Below, piece by piece: positions 410 to 9,465 of a stretch of DNA of 64,000 nucleotides. The notes below the pieces were generated by a model, which searched no databases, had not been told where the DNA came from, and saw nothing but the letters and a program-made list of their open reading frames with translations. Made by a program: the position numbers and the translations under genes. This DNA is from an uncultured Acidobacteriota bacterium (GTDB lineage Bacteria > Acidobacteriota > UBA6911): NCBI GenBank assembly GCA_963827655.1, contig CAWHCF010000004.1:1-64000 (forward strand), in the 5' to 3' direction. Each line of letters begins with the position of its first letter. Positions within the stretch are counted from its first letter, which is position 1.

Positions 410-2404
410 CTACCGACTCCTGGGTGGCGCGCCCCCGTTGAACCTCATCGAGGCGCCTGGTTCGAATAACGCGAAGACGTACAGGGTGCCCCCAGACCGG
501 TAGCTCTTCATCCACGGTGCCCCTGCCCCGGTATATCCTCCCACCGCCCCTCCCATGCCGGCGGGAATTGCGATGTACTGCTTGCCGTCTAACCGATAGG
601 TGATCGGCGCGGACCGGATACCGGATCCCGTTTGGTAGGACCAGAGAATCTGGCCATTTTCCGCGTCGTAGGCGGCGAAGTTGCCTTCGGCATCGCCGGT
701 GAAGATCAGCCCGCCGCCAGTGGCCAGCATGCCGCCACCCATGGGGGTGCGCGTTTTGACCTCCCAGACGACCTCGCCGGTATTCGGTTGGATGGCCATG
801 ACCTTGCCATAGGCTTCATTCGGCAGATAGCGAAAGCCGCTCGGCCCGGCGGGCAACTTCTGGCTCCGCGCTTTGACGCCGTAATTGTAGAACTTGGCGC
901 AGTTCTCGATTACCGGCAAGTACACCAGGCGTGTAATCGGGCTATAGGACATCGGCATCCATTCTTTGCCCCCCGCTGCCCCCGGACACACCGTGACGCC
1001 CTCGTACGTCGGGATGGCCGCAGGATCGATGATCGGCCTTCCGTTGGAGTCGAAACCCTTTGTCCACGTAACCCGCACGAACGGCTTGGCGTAAAGGAAC
1101 TTTCCGTTGGTCCGGTCCAGCGCGTAGAAATGACCGTTGCGGTCGGCATGAACCAATGCTTTCACGCGCCGCCCCTGCCACTCGATGTCGATGAGCACCA
1201 GCTCGTTGACGCCGTCCCAGTCCCAGACGTCATGCGGCGTATACTGATAGTGCCACTTGAGGCTGCCCGTGTCGGCGTCGAGCGCGACGACCGAATCCGA
1301 GTACAGGTTGTCCCCCTTGCGGGCATCGGTATCGTAATCGGGATAGGGATTGCCGGTGCCCCAGTAGATCAGATCCAGCTCCGGGTCGTACGATCCGCCC
1401 ATCCAGGTCGCCGCGCCCCCGGTCTCGTAGGATTTACCGCTCCAGGTCTCCGCCCCTTTCTCCCCCTCCCCGGGGATGGTATAGAAGCGCCAGAGCCGTT
1501 TTCCCGTCTCTGCGTGGTAGGCGTCGATGAAACCACGGCTAGGCGAATCTCCGCCGGCGATGCCGACGACGACCTTATCGCGGACAATAAGCGGAGGTTG
1601 CTTGGCGTTCTGGTTCTCCTCTACCTTGCCTATCTCGATGTCCCAGCGGACCCGTCCGGTCTGCGCATCAAGGGCCACGAGGTGGGCGTCCAGGGTAGTC
1701 ATGTACACTGTGCCGTTAGCGATCGACACGCCCCGATTCGCCGGCCCGCAGCAATAGTTCAGCTTCTGGGGAAGCCGCCGCTTATGACGCCACAACTCGG
1801 CGCCGGTCCGCGCGTCGATGGCGAACACGTGATTCCACGCTGCAGTCAGGTACATCACGCCGTCGACAAACAGAGGCGTCGCCTCCAGGCCATCCAGGAC
1901 CCCGGTCTGGAAGCTCCACACCGGCACCAGGTTCTTGACGTTGTCCTTGTTGACCTGGGCAAGCGAGCTGAAGCTATGGCTCGCGTAGTTGCCGCCCCAC
2001 ATGAGCCAGTTGTCCGGGTCCCGAACCGAATTCAGCAGGCGTTCCCCGCTCACGTTGAGCTTCGGTGCCTTTATGCTGGTAACCGGCTGCAGGGCCTGGT
2101 TTCCGAGCCACCGCAAGTGTTGCACGACCGCCTGCCGGGCGTCCTGATCGAGCCTGTCGGCGAACGCGGGCATGGCCGCGCCCCGGACACCCTCTCGTAT
2201 GATCCGGTCCAGCTCCGCGTCCGTTATGCTCGTCTGCCAGCCGGGATTCGCAAGATCCGGAGCGGATCCCCCGTCGCCGAGAGCCCCATGGCATACCGCG
2301 CAGTGCTCGGTGAACAACGTCTGGCCGCGTTCCTGCTGCGGCTGCGCCGCAGCCGCGGCCACGAACGCAAAGAAGGGGATGAGAGTTACCGTACGAAGAC
2401 CCAT
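410..2404 (-). CDS. PQQ-dependent dehydrogenase (methanol/ethanol family) with N-terminal cytochrome c domain
   Basis: Signal peptide MGLRTVTLIPFFAFVAAAAA; CAVCH heme motif; vicinal CCGPANRG; WMGGSYDPELDLIYWGTGNP; HDVWDWDGVNE; repeated PQQ propeller W-motifs. Start moved to ATG 2404. Confidence 0.9.
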   Translation of the reverse strand: MGLRTVTLIPFFAFVAAAAAQPQQERGQTLFTEHCAVCHGALGDGGSAPDLANPGWQTSITDAELDRIIREGVRGAAMPAFADRLDQDARQAVVQHLRWLGNQALQPVTSIKAPKLNVSGERLLNSVRDPDNWLMWGGNYASHSFSSLAQVNKDNVKNLVPVWSFQTGVLDGLEATPLFVDGVMYLTAAWNHVFAIDARTGAELWRHKRRLPQKLNYCCGPANRGVSIANGTVYMTTLDAHLVALDAQTGRVRWDIEIGKVEENQNAKQPPLIVRDKVVVGIAGGDSPSRGFIDAYHAETGKRLWRFYTIPGEGEKGAETWSGKSYETGGAATWMGGSYDPELDLIYWGTGNPYPDYDTDARKGDNLYSDSVVALDADTGSLKWHYQYTPHDVWDWDGVNELVLIDIEWQGRRVKALVHADRNGHFYALDRTNGKFLYAKPFVRVTWTKGFDSNGRPIIDPAAIPTYEGVTVCPGAAGGKEWMPMSYSPITRLVYLPVIENCAKFYNYGVKARSQKLPAGPSGFRYLPNEAYGKVMAIQPNTGEVVWEVKTRTPMGGGMLATGGGLIFTGDAEGNFAAYDAENGQILWSYQTGSGIRSAPITYRLDGKQYIAIPAGMGGAVGGYTGAGAPWMKSYRSGGTLYVFALFEPGASMRFNGGAPPRSR

Positions 2405-2950
2405 AGGCGCGCCGTGAATGTCACCGCCGAGATTGATCCTTGACGATACTGAAGAAGCCTTTCCGGGGCAAGAACTCTCGGCGAAAACGACGTGACCTCG
2501 CCCGTCTGTGACTGGTTTCAAAACGTCTTTTGACACGCTGGACTTTCGAGTGGCCGCCCTTCCGGGAAAGAACGCTGTCGTGGACAGTCAATCTCAGACC
2601 TCCATTTGTACCAGGACATATGAAACAGCTCGTGCTCGCAAATCAGAGCCTTTGGTCCCGGGACGTGTCGTATTGGTAAGTGATGGCCTGGATGAGTCCG
2701 ATGAAACTCTCCTTGGAGCCGGGTCTGAGCGACAGTGATCGGACAAGGCGAGCGCCAGAGCGGAGCCAGCGTTATTCGGGCTTTTACGGTCGTGACCCGG
2801 TTGGTGATGAGCTGGCGCCGGGAAGATCGCGGTTGAGCAATCGGCCTGGTAAGAGAGAGAAACCGACCTGTCCTGACCGCCTCACGTTGAGACATTGTTC
2901 CAGCGCGGCTTTTGATCACATGATCAACGGTCTAGCCGGTCCGGGATGCT

Positions 2951-3817
2951 CTAGTCTCCGACCTCCAGGACATAGATTTGCCATGCGATAGGAGGGGTGG
3001 TAACCATCGATTCTACTTTGTTTTGTACCACATCCAGGATCTCTCTCACCTCCTCATCAGGCACACCGGCAAATAAGCTACTTCCCTTCGCCATAACAGG
3101 TATGCGTAAGAAATCGATGTGATCCTTGGGGGTACAATGAACCGCTATGCGCTCTCTTCTAGTTAACTTCAGATTGTAATCGTCTAAAGACTCTAATACG
3201 AAATTCGTTTTCGGCACGAGATCAGATTGTGAATCGCGGGCGCTACGGTCGTACCATTCTGGGCTTGCGTAGCCTCTCAGAGCTTTCTCCTTTAATATCG
3301 TCCCGAACACCGTGTTTTCCTCATAAAGCGCGCGTATCTCGCTGAATCTGAACCGAGGGTGCAGTCCCATGAGGCATTTTCCTGAGCGTTTGAGACTTCG
3401 ATGAATCCTCGATAAAACTTGTGCCTTGTCGAACATCCAGAACGCCGCATTGCACAAGATCCGATCCACTTTCGTCTTTGCAACCTTGCTCAGGTTCTCA
3501 GCTTTCTCGCAATGGAATTCTACGTTTGCCGAGGTTATGCGTCTCTGGGCGCAGGCGAGCATTTGAGGTGAAAAGTCAATCGCTATGATTTTGATAGCTT
3601 TCCCATAGGGTTGCCTGAGAATAGCTTCAGTGACCGATCCAGTTCCACAAGCCAGATCGACCACAACCATGCCTGGTTCGATTCCAGCCAGCTGCAGCAT
3701 CTTTTCTGCTGTGTATCGGTAGAAAGTATTTCGAGAAGCAAAGGCGGCGTATGCCTCGGCGCTCAGGTCCCAGTCTTGCTGCTCGCTTAAATTACGACCG
3801 ATGGGTCGTTTACTCAT
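2951..3817 (-). CDS. Class I SAM-dependent methyltransferase (putative RiPP tailoring enzyme)
   Basis: Motif I VVDLACGTG, IAIDFSPQML, DRILCNAAFW; last gene of the MNIO operon, same AT-rich composition. Confidence 0.85.
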   Translation of the reverse strand: MSKRPIGRNLSEQQDWDLSAEAYAAFASRNTFYRYTAEKMLQLAGIEPGMVVVDLACGTGSVTEAILRQPYGKAIKIIAIDFSPQMLACAQRRITSANVEFHCEKAENLSKVAKTKVDRILCNAAFWMFDKAQVLSRIHRSLKRSGKCLMGLHPRFRFSEIRALYEENTVFGTILKEKALRGYASPEWYDRSARDSQSDLVPKTNFVLESLDDYNLKLTRRERIAVHCTPKDHIDFLRIPVMAKGSSLFAGVPDEEVREILDVVQNKVESMVTTPPIAWQIYVLEVGD

Positions 3818-3984
3818 CTTGATTTCCGTCCCTTAGGAAATGATCGTCCTACTGTGCCAGAGTAGGACGATCATTTACCATTATGTTCAAGGTCTCGAGA
3901 GCTGCCTCTGCAACGTGGATGAAGTCTTAGATGCCGATGCAGCTTGTACCCGAACTTTGCAAGATTGTTCTGGAACTGCTAGCT

Positions 3985-4149
3985 TCAGGCGCAGCCGCAG
4001 CCGCAGCCGCAAGCACAGGCAGAGCCGCAAGAACAAACTTTGCCACAAGAGCAAACGCAGCTGCATAATGGAACCGACAAGGATGCTTGGGCAGCTTTAG
4101 GCTCAAACGGCTCCAATTTGAACAAATCCGTTTGCTTGCTATCAGGCAT
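3985..4149 (-). CDS. Cys-rich RiPP precursor peptide, 54 aa (MPDSKQTDLFKLEPFEPKAAQASLSVPLCSCVCSCGKVCSCGSACACGCGCGCA)
   Basis: Strong SD GAAAGGAGGTGA just upstream of ATG 4149; Cys-free leader followed by an 11-Cys CxC-repeat core; lies between the MNIO partner and the methyltransferase. Confidence 0.85.
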   Translation of the reverse strand: MPDSKQTDLFKLEPFEPKAAQASLSVPLCSCVCSCGKVCSCGSACACGCGCGCA

Positions 4150-4289
4150 AAGTATCACCTCCTTTCTTTCCGGTAGGCCAGAACCACAAACAATCGCCTT
4201 TTCATGAGAACACAACGGATCACACTCAGAGGTCATTTCTGACTAACCACGCTCATAATAATCTGATCACTAATAATCAGTTGGTCTAG

Positions 4290-5183
4290 CTACGCCTGTT
4301 CCTCGTTTTCGCCGATAAAGTTTACTGCTCCCCGGACATACAGTTGCTCGAGCGTCGCCAGGCAGTCAGCCCTTGCCGCGGCTTCGGTGATCCCCAGTTG
4401 AGAAGCTATAGATGAGATAACACCATCGAGGGTATGCTTTCCATCGCAGAGCTCAATCAGGTGTTTTAAAGGCAGATTGATAATGCTGGTATGAACGCCT
4501 GGCGCATGCGGTATCTTGAAGAAGAGAACCCAGGTTGGTTTCACCTCTAATGGTGGAATAGCTTGTTGCTCTTCAACCAGGGGGATTAACTCAGCCATGT
4601 TGTAACTGAATGATTGCAGACGCGCATGCTTACCTAACAAAGGTGTGGAGCTTCTTTGACACTCGTTGGTAAATGTCGATTTCGTCCGGTCTGCCTTCGT
4701 GAACCCTATGGCGTACTGACTTACCTCCGGATCAGTCAGCATCGAGAACTTGAGCACCTCGAATTCCAGGACATCCGTAAAACAGGGCACGTCTATTTCT
4801 TTTGTGGCGATCAGCTGACGAAGGTATTCAGAGACTCTGTGAAATTCGCCACGCACCCAGTCGCCCCCAATCTCATCGGTGCCCCTGACATTTTCTAAAC
4901 CATACCGATTGAGGACGACATGGAACTTCTCAGCCGGAAGCTGTTTGGCCAGAACGAGAAATGAGAGGGGCAGCCACTTCTTTATGAGCGCCAGTCTCTT
5001 ACTCAGCAATGAGCTGGCATATTCGCGAACTGCTTGCAGATCGACCGATTTGATGTCTTCTGACTCCTTTGCTGTCAAAGCAGACAATTCGAGAGCCTTG
5101 TCTGGGTCGCTGGAGAAAGTGTGACGGAATTCATGATCGACGCATAGCTTGGCGATTACAGTTTGCATGGCAATCATTGACAT
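4290..5183 (-). CDS. MNIO partner protein (HvfC/BufC/TglI-like) with C-terminal PqqD/RRE-like winged helix
   Basis: Directly downstream of DUF692; AGGAGG SD before ATG 5183; N-terminal KLCVDHEFRHTFSSDPDKAL helix; FTDVLEFE; C-terminal LIELCDGKHTLDGVI...LEQLYVRGAV. Confidence 0.75.
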   Translation of the reverse strand: MSMIAMQTVIAKLCVDHEFRHTFSSDPDKALELSALTAKESEDIKSVDLQAVREYASSLLSKRLALIKKWLPLSFLVLAKQLPAEKFHVVLNRYGLENVRGTDEIGGDWVRGEFHRVSEYLRQLIATKEIDVPCFTDVLEFEVLKFSMLTDPEVSQYAIGFTKADRTKSTFTNECQRSSTPLLGKHARLQSFSYNMAELIPLVEEQQAIPPLEVKPTWVLFFKIPHAPGVHTSIINLPLKHLIELCDGKHTLDGVISSIASQLGITEAAARADCLATLEQLYVRGAVNFIGENEEQA

Positions 5184-5271
5184 GGACCATTCCTCCTGAA
5201 AACGACGACGATCGCTGGCCACAGCAAAGCAAAACTATTCCTCAGACGTACAGCAGGCGACGAACGGCCAT

Positions 5272-6108
5272 TTACCCGCGGCCGTGATACCGTCTGAATA
5301 TCTCTCGCGCCGTGGCCAGGTCGCCAATCAGCTCTTGAAAGGAGCTGGGGAAATTGTCGTCTCTTTCTAACAAAACCCCCTTGACTGGGGCATGGCTGAC
5401 GACAAACTCCAGCAGGCGGAAAACCTCTGGATGAACTGGATGGCTGTGAGAATCAATCCACTTCGTGTGATGCCGATGCCCGCCAGCGATGTGTAACTGC
5501 ACGACGCGATCCAGCGGGATTGACTTTAAAAAGTGATATGGGTCATATCCGTGGTTGATAGAATTAATGTATACATTGCAGAGATCGAGCAGCATCCCGA
5601 TGTCCGCTTGCTCCAGGACGCGAGTAATGAAGGCCGGCTCTGACAGTTCACTTCCGGGAAATTGAAAGTAGTAGGTGATGTTCTCCAGCAGGAAAGGCCT
5701 CGGGACTTTCTCTTGTATCCGCTTTATCTTGCGGACTACGATCTCTACGGTTTCCTCCGAAAACTGCAGCGGTGTTAGCTGTCCCAGGTTGTACCCCTCA
5801 ACCCTGGTGAAACATAGGTGGTCTGTAAACCACGGGGCGTCCAGTCTTTTAACCAGGGCAGAAAGGCTTTCCAGATACGCGGCCTCAATAGGTCTATCTG
5901 TTCCTATGGAAAGGTCTATACCATGAGGCACGATCGGAAAAGTCGTCGCGAGAGTCGACAGTTGATCTAACTTGTCGGGGGTTACGTTAATATAATGTTC
6001 GGCGATGACTTCGCACCAATCAATATGCTCCCGATTGAGCATGATCTCTTTGGCAATCTCCCGTCGCCAGCCAATGCCGACGCCGAGTGTTGGTATGTCT
6101 GAATACAT
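5272..6108 (-). CDS. DUF692 family multinuclear non-heme iron oxidative enzyme (MNIO; MbnB/TglH/ChrH-like)
   Basis: GVGIGWR, EVIAEHY, HGIDLSIG, WFTDHLCF, LLENI, LLDLCNVYINS, QLHIAGG, IDSHS and LLERD motifs; GGAGG SD. Confidence 0.95.
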   Translation of the reverse strand: MYSDIPTLGVGIGWRREIAKEIMLNREHIDWCEVIAEHYINVTPDKLDQLSTLATTFPIVPHGIDLSIGTDRPIEAAYLESLSALVKRLDAPWFTDHLCFTRVEGYNLGQLTPLQFSEETVEIVVRKIKRIQEKVPRPFLLENITYYFQFPGSELSEPAFITRVLEQADIGMLLDLCNVYINSINHGYDPYHFLKSIPLDRVVQLHIAGGHRHHTKWIDSHSHPVHPEVFRLLEFVVSHAPVKGVLLERDDNFPSSFQELIGDLATAREIFRRYHGRG

Positions 6109-6158
6109 AAGACCCCTCCGGGTGCGAGGCTAAGACATCGTAACTGTGGGAGTTACTT

Positions 6159-8246
6159 TCATACTGGGTCGCGCCTCGTCAGTGTAATGATGCGTTTCGA
6201 GGTAAGGTCCCGAACGAGTTCTGTGATCCGCTCTGTTAGTTCGCTTTCGCTTGGTTCTATGGCGTGGTGGTTGTGGTAAAAGTGCGCTAGCTTTCGGCTG
6301 ATCACCCGGACCGTGTGGGTTCCATCGCAAAGATCAAGGAAATACTTCGTCGCCTGGTTGATTGTGAACTCCAAGTTGATAAAATTCCGTTCTCGCTTGA
6401 ACAAGAGGAAGGTAGGGGTCTGTGGAAGGTCACGTGGTATGTCATGTTGCTGCAAGCGAGTAGCTAAGGTCTGTAAGTCGTAGTTAAATGTCTGGACATG
6501 AACCCCTTTGGATTTGAGAGGTCTAAGGTCCGATAGATCAGCGATAGTATTGTGCTTGCTGATACGCGGTGCCGCGGCAGCGACGGACGCTACGGATCCA
6601 GGCGCCCAGGCGGGCGGGCTAACAAGTTCGGCGTCGCGATCGAGTAGCATCAAGTTATGGGCTTTCTCATACCTGAACGCGTCAATGAAATACTCGTATC
6701 CGCTGCCAAGGTCGCCCAGCATGGGCTCCAGAAACTCGCAAAGCCCCAAAGCGTCTTTGAACTGGCCAGCTGCCGGGGCAGTGCGCTGTCGGCAGTATTC
6801 ATTTACTAGCTGATCCCATTGGCCGTTTAACAAAGCGCTGGTCCATGGCAAGCGCGCTTTCAGCTTCTCTTTTCTGACAGACTCTAGAGGAGCCCCGCCA
6901 TCGGTTGTAGTCGATAGTCGTGTCTGCCGCTTGTCGATCATCTTGATCCACTCCTTCTCGAGGGCATCAAGATATGTTGCGGTTGCCTTGTCGCGGGCGG
7001 CATGGGCATCTTCATCGCCGCTGTATAATTCATGCCCCTGGAGTCCGATGAGCTTTGCTTTGTCTGGGTCGCGAATTACGACGGTTAATTGTCTGGCCAG
7101 GTCCAGGTGTTGTTTAGGATCGTCCACGATAAGCACATTCTGCCCATCGATGAACCTGTCTTTAATTCTGTGCTGCTTATTTGAGATTTCTCTGGAAACG
7201 ATCAGGGGGGTGCCGCAAGCTAAAATCTCACTGGGAATTGTGGGGCTATGAAAACTGATTGGGAACTCTCGCTCGAGGAAACAGACGGCAGTGCACGCAC
7301 GAATGAACCCAGGAACTTTCCAGTGCGGCATAAAGGGAAAGATCCACGTTCTATCCTGTAAATCGAGTTCCTCAATAGCTCGTTTGAAGCTTGTGAGAGC
7401 TCTTCCCTGAGTCAAGGCTAGAAGGTTGAAATCTAATCCTCTTTGCTTTAATAGCCTTAAAGCGTTCAGGAGGTCGAAGGACCCTTTCACTTCACCTACC
7501 TTCCCATAAATACCAATCGAAGGTTTGGACAAATCGATGGGATTTGTGTTGATTAGAGCGGTTTGCACGTGCTTGCTTTGCAAGGTTGCTAACCTTTTTA
7601 GAAATCCATTAAGATCTAAGGGCTTTGCCTGAGGACTAAAAATGTCTGGAACCTGGGGGGTTCTACCTGGCCATATATTCTCTTCTTTTACGCCCATAGC
7701 CAGGAAGGGCTCGGTAAAGGCAGATCCCGTCCATACGGAATCAGCGGCTCTCAGTATCTCGCGATAGGCGGTTGTGAGATCACGCTGCTTCATTAAGCGA
7801 CCTAAATCGCTGCCCGCATGCTTTAGCATGTAGGGGACTCCAGTCCATTGCGAGGCCAGATAGGCGGCCATGCCGTAGGGTTGAAGGTAATAGGCAAAAA
7901 TCACTTCGCAACCGTGTCGCCGGATCACCTCGGTCGCTATGGAAGACAGCTTGGTCACAAAGGGATTGGATAAGGGAATGTGCGTCATGGCGTCGGTAAA
8001 CGGCTGTGTGTTACGGACCCTGACGAAGCCCCCGGAATCCGCGAACTGTGGCTCATACCAATCCTGGTCGTCCTCATCCATGTAAATTCGGTATTCCGGT
8101 TCAACCTCGACGGCATTAGTCACTATAAAAATCTGATGACCTCGTTGCGCCAACTCGCGTGCCAGCCAGTAAGAACGCATGCTCACTCCACCTTCGATAG
8201 GTGGATACTTAACAATGAAACACGCTCTGATCATAAGTCTCTCCAT
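6159..8246 (-). CDS. GT4-type (GT-B) glycosyltransferase fused to a C-terminal MNIO-partner/RRE-like domain
   Basis: N-terminal YPPIEGGVS...ELAQRGHQI, HAGSD, GKVGEVKG, EILACGTPLIVS; last ~240 aa resemble the partner gene 4290-5183; alternative start at ATG 8234 with a GGAG SD. Confidence 0.85.
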   Translation of the reverse strand: MERLMIRACFIVKYPPIEGGVSMRSYWLARELAQRGHQIFIVTNAVEVEPEYRIYMDEDDQDWYEPQFADSGGFVRVRNTQPFTDAMTHIPLSNPFVTKLSSIATEVIRRHGCEVIFAYYLQPYGMAAYLASQWTGVPYMLKHAGSDLGRLMKQRDLTTAYREILRAADSVWTGSAFTEPFLAMGVKEENIWPGRTPQVPDIFSPQAKPLDLNGFLKRLATLQSKHVQTALINTNPIDLSKPSIGIYGKVGEVKGSFDLLNALRLLKQRGLDFNLLALTQGRALTSFKRAIEELDLQDRTWIFPFMPHWKVPGFIRACTAVCFLEREFPISFHSPTIPSEILACGTPLIVSREISNKQHRIKDRFIDGQNVLIVDDPKQHLDLARQLTVVIRDPDKAKLIGLQGHELYSGDEDAHAARDKATATYLDALEKEWIKMIDKRQTRLSTTTDGGAPLESVRKEKLKARLPWTSALLNGQWDQLVNEYCRQRTAPAAGQFKDALGLCEFLEPMLGDLGSGYEYFIDAFRYEKAHNLMLLDRDAELVSPPAWAPGSVASVAAAAPRISKHNTIADLSDLRPLKSKGVHVQTFNYDLQTLATRLQQHDIPRDLPQTPTFLLFKRERNFINLEFTINQATKYFLDLCDGTHTVRVISRKLAHFYHNHHAIEPSESELTERITELVRDLTSKRIITLTRRDPV

Positions 8247-9465
8247 TCATCGTTGTGAGGCGGCAAGCCGGCCTGCGCAGCCTCACATTTTAATGCGATG
8301 ATCAGCAAGCTCATGTGCCAAGGTAGCTGACGGAGCCTGAATATTACTGCCGGTCAAAAAGCTTCCCAGGAGCGAGAATCAAGCTTCAGGCCAGGCGATT
8401 ACCACACCCGGCGGCCCGCTTATCTATTGAGTGTCTTCGAATTGGGTGAATTAAAGGGAAACGGGACAAAAGGAATGAAGAGCTGCAAGCATCATCCCCA
8501 GAACCACGAAAGAAACCGTGCGGTGTGATGAAACGACGCAGAGAGTGAGCAATCATAAGTTCCCCCACTTTGATTGGCAAATCCTCCATCCATCCGTTTC
8601 TGCTGGTGGGTGGCTGCGGTTTCTACGTATGTTTAGTTAAAGTCAGAGGAAAAACGTTTCACTCTCTGGAACATTTATTAATCTGGCAATGATTCTCAGG
8701 CGTCAGCGAAACAGGAATCAACCGGTGGCTACAGGGCGAGATGACGGCGTGGCGGTCCGCGGCGCCCCCCACGCAGTGCCAGTGGAAACCGCATCCGCTT
8801 CCGCCCCGATCTGATTCAGTTTTTGCGCAGGCTGTCGAATGGAAGCGACATGCAGGTGCAACGCTGGCGTAGACGCGCTCAAGTGACAGCAGCAGCGACC
8901 ACGTAGCTTTCCGAGCAGGAGGAGTGAGCTTGGCTCCGGCACTGACCGTCGCAGGTTCGTTCGAACTTGTATGGACGGTCGCCGCCGGCGAGACGGTCTG
9001 TCGCGGGCTTCCCGCACTAGGGATGATCGGCTTTTCGGGTGATCGTCGAATCGGTCTCGATGAGTTGTGTCGGCCAGGCAACGGCCACGGGTCCGTCACC
9101 GCAAAGAAGCCCAACCGGAATCCAAGAATCCATCAAGCGCGCCTGCCGGATAGCTTGGCTATCCAATAGGATAGGAGTAGGGTCTCGACACTAATCCGCC
9201 CAAGAGCAAAATCTATCGGCGAAACGGCGTTGACATAGGGGATAAATTGACCGTGCAAAGCTTCAGATGGCGGATCGAGTCACGCGCCCACCCGAATCAG
9301 ACTTATCTGGTTCTGAACGATCGCGCCTCTTATCGGCGCGTGAAATGAAGTGGGCAGCCAGGCGGCGCTTGCCGAAAGTGACGGCGAGCAACGCCCTGGA
9401 ATTCAGTTCGGTCGGCCTGCGGGCATCCATCGTTGATAGATCAATGAAACCATCGGCGGCGCGTC

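Follow-up and report, generated by a model that had tools for sequence, protein, structure and literature searches.

MNIO (DUF692) enzymes, which are iron oxidases, are among the largest and least explored peptide-modifying families, and the characterised members that modify Cys make copper-binding groups on exported peptides. TglH, also an MNIO, modifies just one Cys, which has been added to the C-terminus of a scaffold peptide. In the captophorins, which include the bufferins (BufABC), oxazolin (HvfABC) and fontiphorin (FonABC), the MNIO is paired with a partner protein (PME1) consisting of a DUF2063 domain and a RiPP recognition element (RRE; RiPP, a peptide that ribosomes synthesize and that is modified post-translationally); Cys is converted to 5-thiooxazole and the products bind copper, according to passages of PMC13097082 and PMC12452194. 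A portion of the latter paper also places TIGR04222 membrane proteins with Cys/Gly/Ser-rich tails beside MNIO and PME-type 2 genes. Here a small open reading frame (ORF) encoding a 54-amino acid, Cys-rich peptide near an MNIO gene was studied in the first 64,000 nucleotides (forward strand) of contig CAWHCF010000004.1 from an uncultured Acidobacteriota bacterium (assembly GCA_963827655.1); this whole stretch is called the window below.

The small ORF is a real gene: it is conserved, syntenic and present in RNA libraries. It very probably encodes the precursor peptide of a cluster of five genes lying on the same strand in the order GT4 glycosyltransferase (GT), MNIO, MNIO partner protein, precursor and S-adenosylmethionine (SAM)-dependent methyltransferase. 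To the explanation as a whole, a precursor belonging to a rare, horizontally mobile five-gene RiPP cluster and processed by the mechanism proposed below, we assign a probability of roughly 60%.

The precursor gene

The candidate precursor gene occupies positions 3985..4149 on the minus strand and encodes 54 amino acids followed by a stop codon. In the minus-strand translation the protein begins MPDSKQTDLFKLEPFEPKAAQASLSVPL and continues into a core of 26 residues. The leader (residues 1-28, positions 4066-4149) contains no Cys, and the (Cys-X)n core (residues 29-54, positions 3988-4065) contains 11, each followed by G, A, S or V. The window has 1244 stop-to-stop frames that reach 30 amino acids, and no other shows this density; the runner-up count was 5 Cys per 26 residues, in nine frames. 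By eye, the translated leader is polar and charged, has no hydrophobic stretch and carries no Sec signal. The gene is single-copy in its own genome. Neither the 54-residue form nor the longer form described below matched any family in Pfam (E up to 0.01) or NCBIfam (E up to 0.1), and the same was true of the relatives P0030, P0025 and the L005 precursor introduced below.

The longest ORF in this frame (3985-4236, 83 amino acids) also starts with ATG. A Shine-Dalgarno (SD) sequence, AAAGGAGGTGA (4155..4165, minus strand), is placed with its GGAGG end 8 nt before the ATG at 4149-4147. A preliminary description of this DNA had reported the Cys-free leader, the 11 Cys in the last 26 residues and the upstream start at 4236 in the ORF track, all of which agree exactly with the sequence and its translation. 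Its choice of ATG 4149, made on the near-perfect SD, is borne out by the homologues, in which the short start and the SD are conserved and the longer upstream start is not.

The final part of the core is encoded by a period-6 tandem repeat (3986-4011, 4.3 copies), which makes up 26 of the 165 nt of the ORF; the remainder of the core is non-repetitive. Some of the Cys-Gly run could therefore be the result of slippage on these hexanucleotide units.

Upstream of the ATG lies a block of approximately 75 nt (4150..4225, minus strand). When the window is aligned with locus L083, these 75 or so nucleotides leading up to the ATG show hardly any differences, and the intergenic DNA just past the partner gene cannot be aligned. 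The block is a possible promoter and 5' untranslated region of the precursor gene. A scan of 2400-8800 for sigma-70 promoters and terminators gave no excess over shuffled sequence (4 hits against 4.8 and 10 against 5.7, respectively), with nothing convincing near the precursor gene or in the 75-nt block.

Homologous loci and codon-level evidence

Loci were sampled around relatives of the MNIO. Pattern matches numbered 269 in genome contigs, of which 218 were relatives, and 215 in metagenome contigs, of which 123 were; the best 80 of each were kept and are designated by L-numbers. In the closest loci the MNIO is 77-95% identical to that of the window. A homologous ORF follows the partner gene in four metagenome loci (L084, L085, L086 and L088), with the same LFxLEPFE leader motif, CxC pattern and ribosome-binding site. 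In L084, L085 and L088 it lies between the partner and methyltransferase genes, as in the window, and the methyltransferases are 73-75% identical; the L086 contig stops before any methyltransferase gene. L083 contains the first 23 residues of the precursor, all identical, and then the contig ends. A word-index protein search with the precursor returned the peptide itself and one relative of 62 amino acids (P0002, 67% identity).

In an alignment of five sequences L9, F10, E13, P14, F15, E16, K18 and eight Cys columns were invariant, and the stretch between the motif and the core was variable. The homologues, at 47-72% amino acid identity, retain the leader motif and the Cys columns as well as frame, start and SD. 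The preliminary description would have been refuted by lack of conservation of the leader or the Cys pattern in homologous loci, together with lack of evidence of translation; leader and Cys pattern were both found conserved beside DUF692 genes. A block of 17 nt before the ATG, AAAGAAAGGAGGTGATA, was identical in all six loci compared, and the sequence farther upstream differed between two groups.

Both TGC and TGT are used at three of the eight invariant Cys columns. Over the 69 coding nucleotides that could be compared between the window and the 95%-identical locus L083 there were two differences, both synonymous. Variants within the ORF in the RNA contigs described in the next section fell at 4051 (C33), 4093 (A19) and 4099 (P17); all three are third-position synonymous changes, and one coincides with an L083 site. 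The near-identical sequences taken together have four distinct variable sites in the ORF (Q6, P17, A19 and C33), all synonymous and in third positions, and the 178-nt 3' flank had seven substitutions and one deletion in the RNA contigs.

In three metagenome contigs (GT of L087, MNIO of L088 and L089) the matches are split into two overlapping pieces in different frames. These frameshifts are either assembly errors or signs of decaying copies.

RNA contigs covering the precursor gene

Sequence from 3800-6200 was held in part by twenty public sequencing runs, among which are six soil metatranscriptomes whose shares are small. Four of these six, from three studies and picked by their match to this same stretch, were compared with 2900-8300. 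In each run one contig covered the entire ORF (3830-4172, 3807-4156, 3949-4160 and 3885-4158), and the remaining approximately 5.2 kb was represented by only ten scattered pieces of 32-243 nt. All four contigs terminate 7-23 nt upstream of the ATG (at 4156, 4158, 4160 and 4172), with no loose end. The shared ends hint weakly, at best, at where transcription starts; such a start would agree with the 75-nt block that the window and L083 have in common. The contigs support transcription of the precursor gene and do not prove it.

The partner protein and leader docking

The partner gene (4290..5183, minus strand) encodes 297 amino acids from the conserved start MSMIAMQ, which was placed by homologues; the longest ORF reaches 5222. 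The protein consists of a helical, DUF2063-like domain followed by a C-terminal winged helix of the RRE/PqqD type (Pfam PqqD, PF05402, 3e-4). In NCBIfam it matched ApyI (0.0053) and, at the N-terminus, NHLP Os1348 (1.9e-8), and Pfam detected no DUF2063 signature in it. The family is small, with 22 proteins at E up to 1e-5, and its profile gave only weak N-terminal matches to NHLP/LigA/SonA among PDB sequences (E 0.04-0.3). In the AlphaFold2 (AF2) model (pLDDT 88.9, pTM 0.83) the helical domain is followed by a winged-helix end of strand-strand-helix-strand-strand-helix topology. A Foldseek search with this model placed TglI first (8hi7_A, E 7.6e-6, TM 0.60/0.65) and NGO1945 third (3dee, E 7.6e-4), with PqqD lower. 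Partners of this kind are termed PME-type 2 in a section of PMC12452194.

A complex of partner and precursor was modelled from their alignments and scored 0.74, against 0.00 for the best of three controls. Of 157 solved complexes 116 attained this mark, as did 2 of 215 mismatched pairs, counts that are rough because our own alignments were used. Contacts agreed to at least 63% between runs, and the pLDDT of the partner chain was at least 46. In the modelled interface residues 8-20 of the precursor lie on partner residues 231-239 (strand E230-235 of the AF2 model) and the flanking helices, so that the leader is modelled as docking on the RRE strand of the partner. The stretch FKLEPFEPKAA, earlier proposed as the RRE-binding motif, corresponds to residues 10-20 and falls inside the predicted docking segment.

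Residues ~1-65 of the partner (4980-5183) resemble leader domains of the NHLP clan: Pfam reports Frankia_peptide in some homologues, and Foldseek matched 6lk7_C with a TMt of 0.76. A short protein encoded behind the second MNIO gene of this genome starts similarly to this N-terminus.

The MNIO and its probable reaction

The MNIO gene (5272..6108, minus strand) encodes 278 amino acids matching the TIM-barrel domain PF05114 at 5e-88 over 1-261 of its 263 positions. The best NCBIfam profiles were BufB (237 bits) and HvfB (222), followed by ApyH (144), ChrH (65) and MbnB (56). Among PDB sequences the closest was 3bww (9e-42), then TglH (2e-24) and MbnB (8e-12). In an alignment of 14 diverse MNIOs, including that of the window, His62, His97, Glu142, Asp175, His206, Asp219, His221 and Glu248 were invariant and N178 nearly so. 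On the basis of MbnB numbering, we take these His, Asp, Glu and Asn columns to be the metal ligands.

The enzyme carries the motif ERDDNFP where 3bww has ERDFNFP, a position that we infer to correspond to the equivalent one in FonB numbering. As set out in parts of PMC13097082, Cys is turned into 5-thiooxazole by MNIO-PME1 enzymes, those of the HvfB type among them. An Asp is proposed there as the catalytic base; selectivity is tuned by the residue next to it, which is Phe or, in the Cys-Lys group, Asp; and a small residue after the Cys is favoured by FonB, on which this was tested. Because the MNIO of the window is closest to BufB/HvfB, because of its motif and because every core Cys is followed by a small residue, iterative 5-thiooxazole formation on several Cys is our favoured, if tentative, assignment, with odds a little short of even. 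The preliminary description had suggested that dense modification could give a poly-heterocycle or a multi-metal binder; this idea would fit the nearest characterised relatives of the MNIO as they appear in portions of PMC13097082.

The glycosyltransferase and the methyltransferase

The GT4 gene (6159..8246, minus strand) encodes 695 amino acids. Residues ~1-410 form the GT-B catalytic part, which matches Pfam families of the GT4/GT1 type, including PF00534 and PF13579. No PDB sequence matched the GT at E up to 0.001, and AF2 modelled it with low confidence (pLDDT 63.8), so the Foldseek neighbours GlgM, BshA and MshA were used just to assign a GT-B/GT4-like fold.

The C-terminal part of the GT (residues ~419-695, nt 6159-6992), which has an RRE-like end, is a paralogue of the partner. 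The two align throughout these approximately 280 residues, including a segment of the form ...IN..(L/T)K..(I/L)(E/D)LCDG..T.... When the partner family was compared with seven GT C-termini by hhalign, the probability was 97.9 (E 4e-13, 185 columns); the partner profile matched the GT region 6177-6701 at 7.7e-14, and NCBIfam reported an HvfC-like stretch at GT residues 558-688. The HvfC-like match, the partner alignment and hhalign support the earlier view of this domain as one of the leader-recognition type. A word-index search found five proteins with GT-partner fusions of the same kind, annotated in their sources as cell-wall glycosyltransferases. To judge from this paralogy, the GT is probably guided by the leader and would be recruited to the same leader as the MNIO partner.

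The last gene of the conserved cluster (2951..3817, minus strand) encodes a class I SAM methyltransferase of 288 amino acids (Methyltransf_25/11/31), whose matches are generic class I enzymes alone. No Ser or Thr is conserved in all cores, and Cys-derived sulfur is the sole nucleophile kept throughout; for this reason it is the most plausible target of the GT and the methyltransferase. That both enzymes act on it is speculation.

The gene cluster and its surroundings

The five genes coincide with a low-GC island (2900..8500) with a GC content of 0.49-0.53, against 0.58-0.66 in the flanks. The partner gene was found in one of 401 sampled genomes of the phylum, that of the window itself, and in none of the six genomes of the same family. 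The low GC content and the lack of the partner in the other 400 sampled genomes suggest that the cluster was horizontally acquired.

The island is flanked by a gene (410-2536) for a pyrroloquinoline quinone (PQQ)-dependent dehydrogenase with an N-terminal cytochrome c domain and by an ORF of 133 amino acids (2518-2919) that overlaps the dehydrogenase gene and belongs to no family; in L085 and L088 neither of them is a conserved neighbour of the cluster. Elsewhere in the genome (L002, C20:335368-339180) there is a second, different MNIO locus, encoding, in this order, an MNIO of 289 amino acids, a helical protein of 170, an RRE-like protein of 117 and a methyltransferase. The 3.8 kb examined there showed no precursor.

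Related clusters in actinobacteria

A related precursor type, with a (D/E)PF leader containing FLLE/Q and a core of the form TCNCxGSC..GGLC..CC, precedes the genes for MNIO, partner and GT fusion in the actinobacterial loci L005, L008 (two copies), L009 and L091. It is also present in L154, a locus too short to show the cluster. When both precursor types were aligned with MAFFT, P14, F15 and three Cys were invariant, and GGLC was common to both. A profile built from the two types and searched against 1.84 billion representative proteins gave seven matches at E up to 0.001, all belonging to these two types; this search added P0030, a member of 54 amino acids.

The actinobacterial GTs are 33-37% identical to that of the window over about 660-690 residues. 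The clusters additionally hold a divergently transcribed S9 peptidase gene and a class I methyltransferase gene (the latter in L005, L006 and L008), and L008 also has an MFS transporter gene. Among all the sampled loci, four (L003, L087, L089 and L092) are too short for the presence of a precursor to be judged.

In the Actinoplanes-type cluster of L008 the two precursor genes are in tandem and have diverged (L008:2279-2710). In L005 a complete LanB-type lanthipeptide dehydratase gene (L005:575-3604) adjoins the Asanoa cluster past the S9 peptidase gene, and may belong to a neighbouring cluster.

Proposed mechanism and alternative explanations

In the proposed mechanism the precursor gene would have expression signals of its own, the conserved upstream block and the strong SD. 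With its leader motif DLFKLEPFEPKAA (residues 8-20) the precursor would add a strand to the C-terminal, RRE-like domain of the partner, and the partner would offer the core to the MNIO, in the manner of TglHI and MbnBC. The MNIO, with its conserved metal-ligand columns and BufB/HvfB-type affinity, would oxidise several of the 11 Cys, most likely to 5-thiooxazoles. A paralogous recognition domain of its own would bring the GT4 enzyme to this same leader; the enzyme would add a sugar, and the methyltransferase would add methyl groups. The product would probably be a peptide dense in N,S-ligands, either metal-binding or redox-active.

Several points weigh against this explanation. A recognisable precursor was not found in four of the related actinobacterial loci (L004, L006, L007 and L090), and the island of the window encodes neither a protease nor an exporter. 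The MNIO falls under the curated cut-offs (BufB 237 vs 310, HvfB 222 vs 360) and so is not an equivalog of either, and the partner resembles TglI, whose enzyme TglH performs a different Cys reaction. Product, translation and binding are predicted. The RNA contigs are silent on strand, ends and level, and RNA libraries can contain DNA. Leader-RRE complexes of other families have been solved, so the complex model may pass by likeness; the low-confidence GT model leaves leader binding by the GT to be judged from paralogy. Pairwise pN/pS values of the 50-codon homologues did not stay below 1 throughout (3.9, 0.46 and 0.43), with only 1-6 synonymous differences to calculate them from.

The alternative that survives best retains the precursor and its cluster and differs in the chemistry. 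It is rather unlikely, on our estimate, that the MNIO performs a Cys reaction other than 5-thiooxazole formation; candidates, taken together, are methanobactin-like oxazolone/thioamide pairs, the beta-carbon excision of TglH, macrocyclisation with thioaminals and S-methylation as by ChrH, or a novel reaction using adjacent CxC units. That the partner fold is nearest to TglI and not to a DUF2063 PME1 protein speaks for such a reaction, as do the bit scores below the BufB and HvfB cut-offs and the methyltransferase, which recalls the S-methyl group of chryseobasin (mentioned in the abstract of PMC10214503). MNIOs are moreover credited with at least four distinct Cys reactions in a passage of PMC13174530. 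On the other hand, the ChrH and MbnB scores are far below those of BufB and HvfB, the TglH match is weaker than that of the HvfB-type 3bww, and more distant relatives of the MNIO adjoin proteins with C-terminal Cys/Gly-rich tails; the MNIOs of some TIGR04222 clusters are close to bufferin enzymes, as noted in part of PMC12452194.

A stand-alone, metallothionein-like peptide that is used unmodified and lies near the MNIO gene by accident is very improbable. CxC runs without aromatic residues are typical of metallothioneins, and the lack of a protease and an exporter in the island agrees with this reading. A metallothionein, however, does not need a 28-residue, Cys-free leader with an invariant motif, which the model docks on the RRE of the partner; genes for MNIO, partner, GT fusion and methyltransferase accompany that of the peptide in two phyla, and the Pfam and NCBIfam searches above gave no match to a metallothionein family.

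A chance open frame arising from a GC-rich hexanucleotide repeat in an intergenic spacer would account for the tandem repeat, for the gene callers having skipped the ORF or given it a longer start and for the pN/pS values, but it is barely credible when the repeat covers so small a part of the ORF, the Cys density lies far outside that of any other frame, leader motif and Cys columns are conserved among the homologues and across phyla together with frame, start and SD, every variant in close relatives is synonymous, and DNA conserved without the frame was looked for in relatives and not seen.

Significance of the cluster

Neither the precursor family nor an MNIO cluster containing a GT-partner fusion was found described in a full-text literature search; the supplements of PMC12452194 (Table S1, Fig. 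S3) and the data sets of PMC13097082, which could list such clusters, lay outside its scope. Nor is such a cluster mentioned in the text of PMC12452194 or in PMC12257519 and PMC13174530, as far as the portions consulted extend.

The five-gene cluster might make a new class of peptides, in which up to eleven alternating Cys become a near-contiguous array of 5-thiooxazoles that is then S-glycosylated and/or S-methylated by leader-reading enzymes with a duplicated partner domain; taken as a whole this proposal is doubtful. If it is true, the GT4 would be the first in RiPP biosynthesis to be guided by a leader, the cluster would be the first captophorin relative that is cytoplasmic, dependent on a leader and decorated, and the class would sit on a mobile low-GC island and occur in Acidobacteriota-like and actinobacterial genomes. 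Recruitment of a GT by duplication and fusion of the MNIO partner would be a previously undescribed route.

The substrate is very small and tractable (54 amino acids), has a short and clear leader motif and carries the densest Cys array among the MNIO-associated candidates examined. The system could reveal the iteration limit of MNIO chemistry on adjacent sites, and tell whether sugars or methyl groups can be attached to thiooxazole sulfur. The precursor is in addition a case of a conserved and apparently transcribed small gene that was missed or given a wrong start by annotation.

Comparison with known systems

Among the captophorin enzymes are the best profile matches of the MNIO of the locus, BufB and HvfB; its best PDB match is 3bww, and it has an ERD motif at the 3bww position. 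The locus shares with the captophorins a Cys-rich core with a small residue after each Cys, and a partner built of a helical domain and an RRE. It differs from them in that the MNIO is under both equivalog cut-offs and in two features that define captophorins: the partner is TglI-like (PME-type 2) and shows no DUF2063 signature, and where a Sec signal would be expected the precursor has a leader of the classical cytoplasmic kind. Moreover, the core is of the (Cys-X)n type and not of the EGKCG, Cys-Lys or DUF2282 types, and the cluster contains the additional GT4-partner fusion and methyltransferase and has no DoxX gene.

With TglHI, the 3-thiaglutamate (pearlin) system of Pseudomonas syringae (PDB 8hi7, 8hci), the cluster shares a leader without a signal sequence and a PME-type 2 partner, whose predicted fold is closest to TglI. 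The MNIO of the window is less similar to TglH than to the HvfB-type 3bww, and its putative substrate has a multi-Cys core.

Some of the more distant MNIO relatives (34-46% identity) are encoded directly after proteins ending in Gly/Ser/Cys tails of the GCGGGCGG type (GCGG-type), in loci L010-L012, L036, L040-L042, L046, L047, L093, L138, L157 and L160. Two of these tail proteins (L040 and L046) were tested and gave a weak match to TIGR04222; the partners in these loci align with the N-terminal part of the partner of the window. Unlike the TIGR04222 substrates, the precursor is a soluble peptide of 54 amino acids with a short recognition leader and no multi-pass membrane domain, and neither its 54- nor its 83-residue form matches NCBIfam. 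The GT fusion and the methyltransferase also set the cluster apart, neither being reported for TIGR04222 clusters in the sections of PMC12452194 consulted.

The core resembles metallothioneins in its dense CxC pattern, small spacers and lack of aromatic residues. Unlike them, half of the peptide is a conserved leader of 28 Cys-free residues, and its gene belongs to a modification cluster.

As in glycocins and other glycosylated RiPPs, which use S-glycosyltransferases of the SunS/ThuS type, a GT is encoded together with a Cys-containing precursor. Unlike the glycocin enzymes, this GT belongs to GT4 (GT-B fold) and is not a SunS-like GT2. RRE fusions to PF00535 glycosyltransferases are reported on bioinformatic grounds in a part of PMC12710340 that mentions no other GT fusion. 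In contrast to those fusions, the module joined to the GT of the window is a paralogue of the whole MNIO partner, comprising both the DUF2063-like domain and the RRE.

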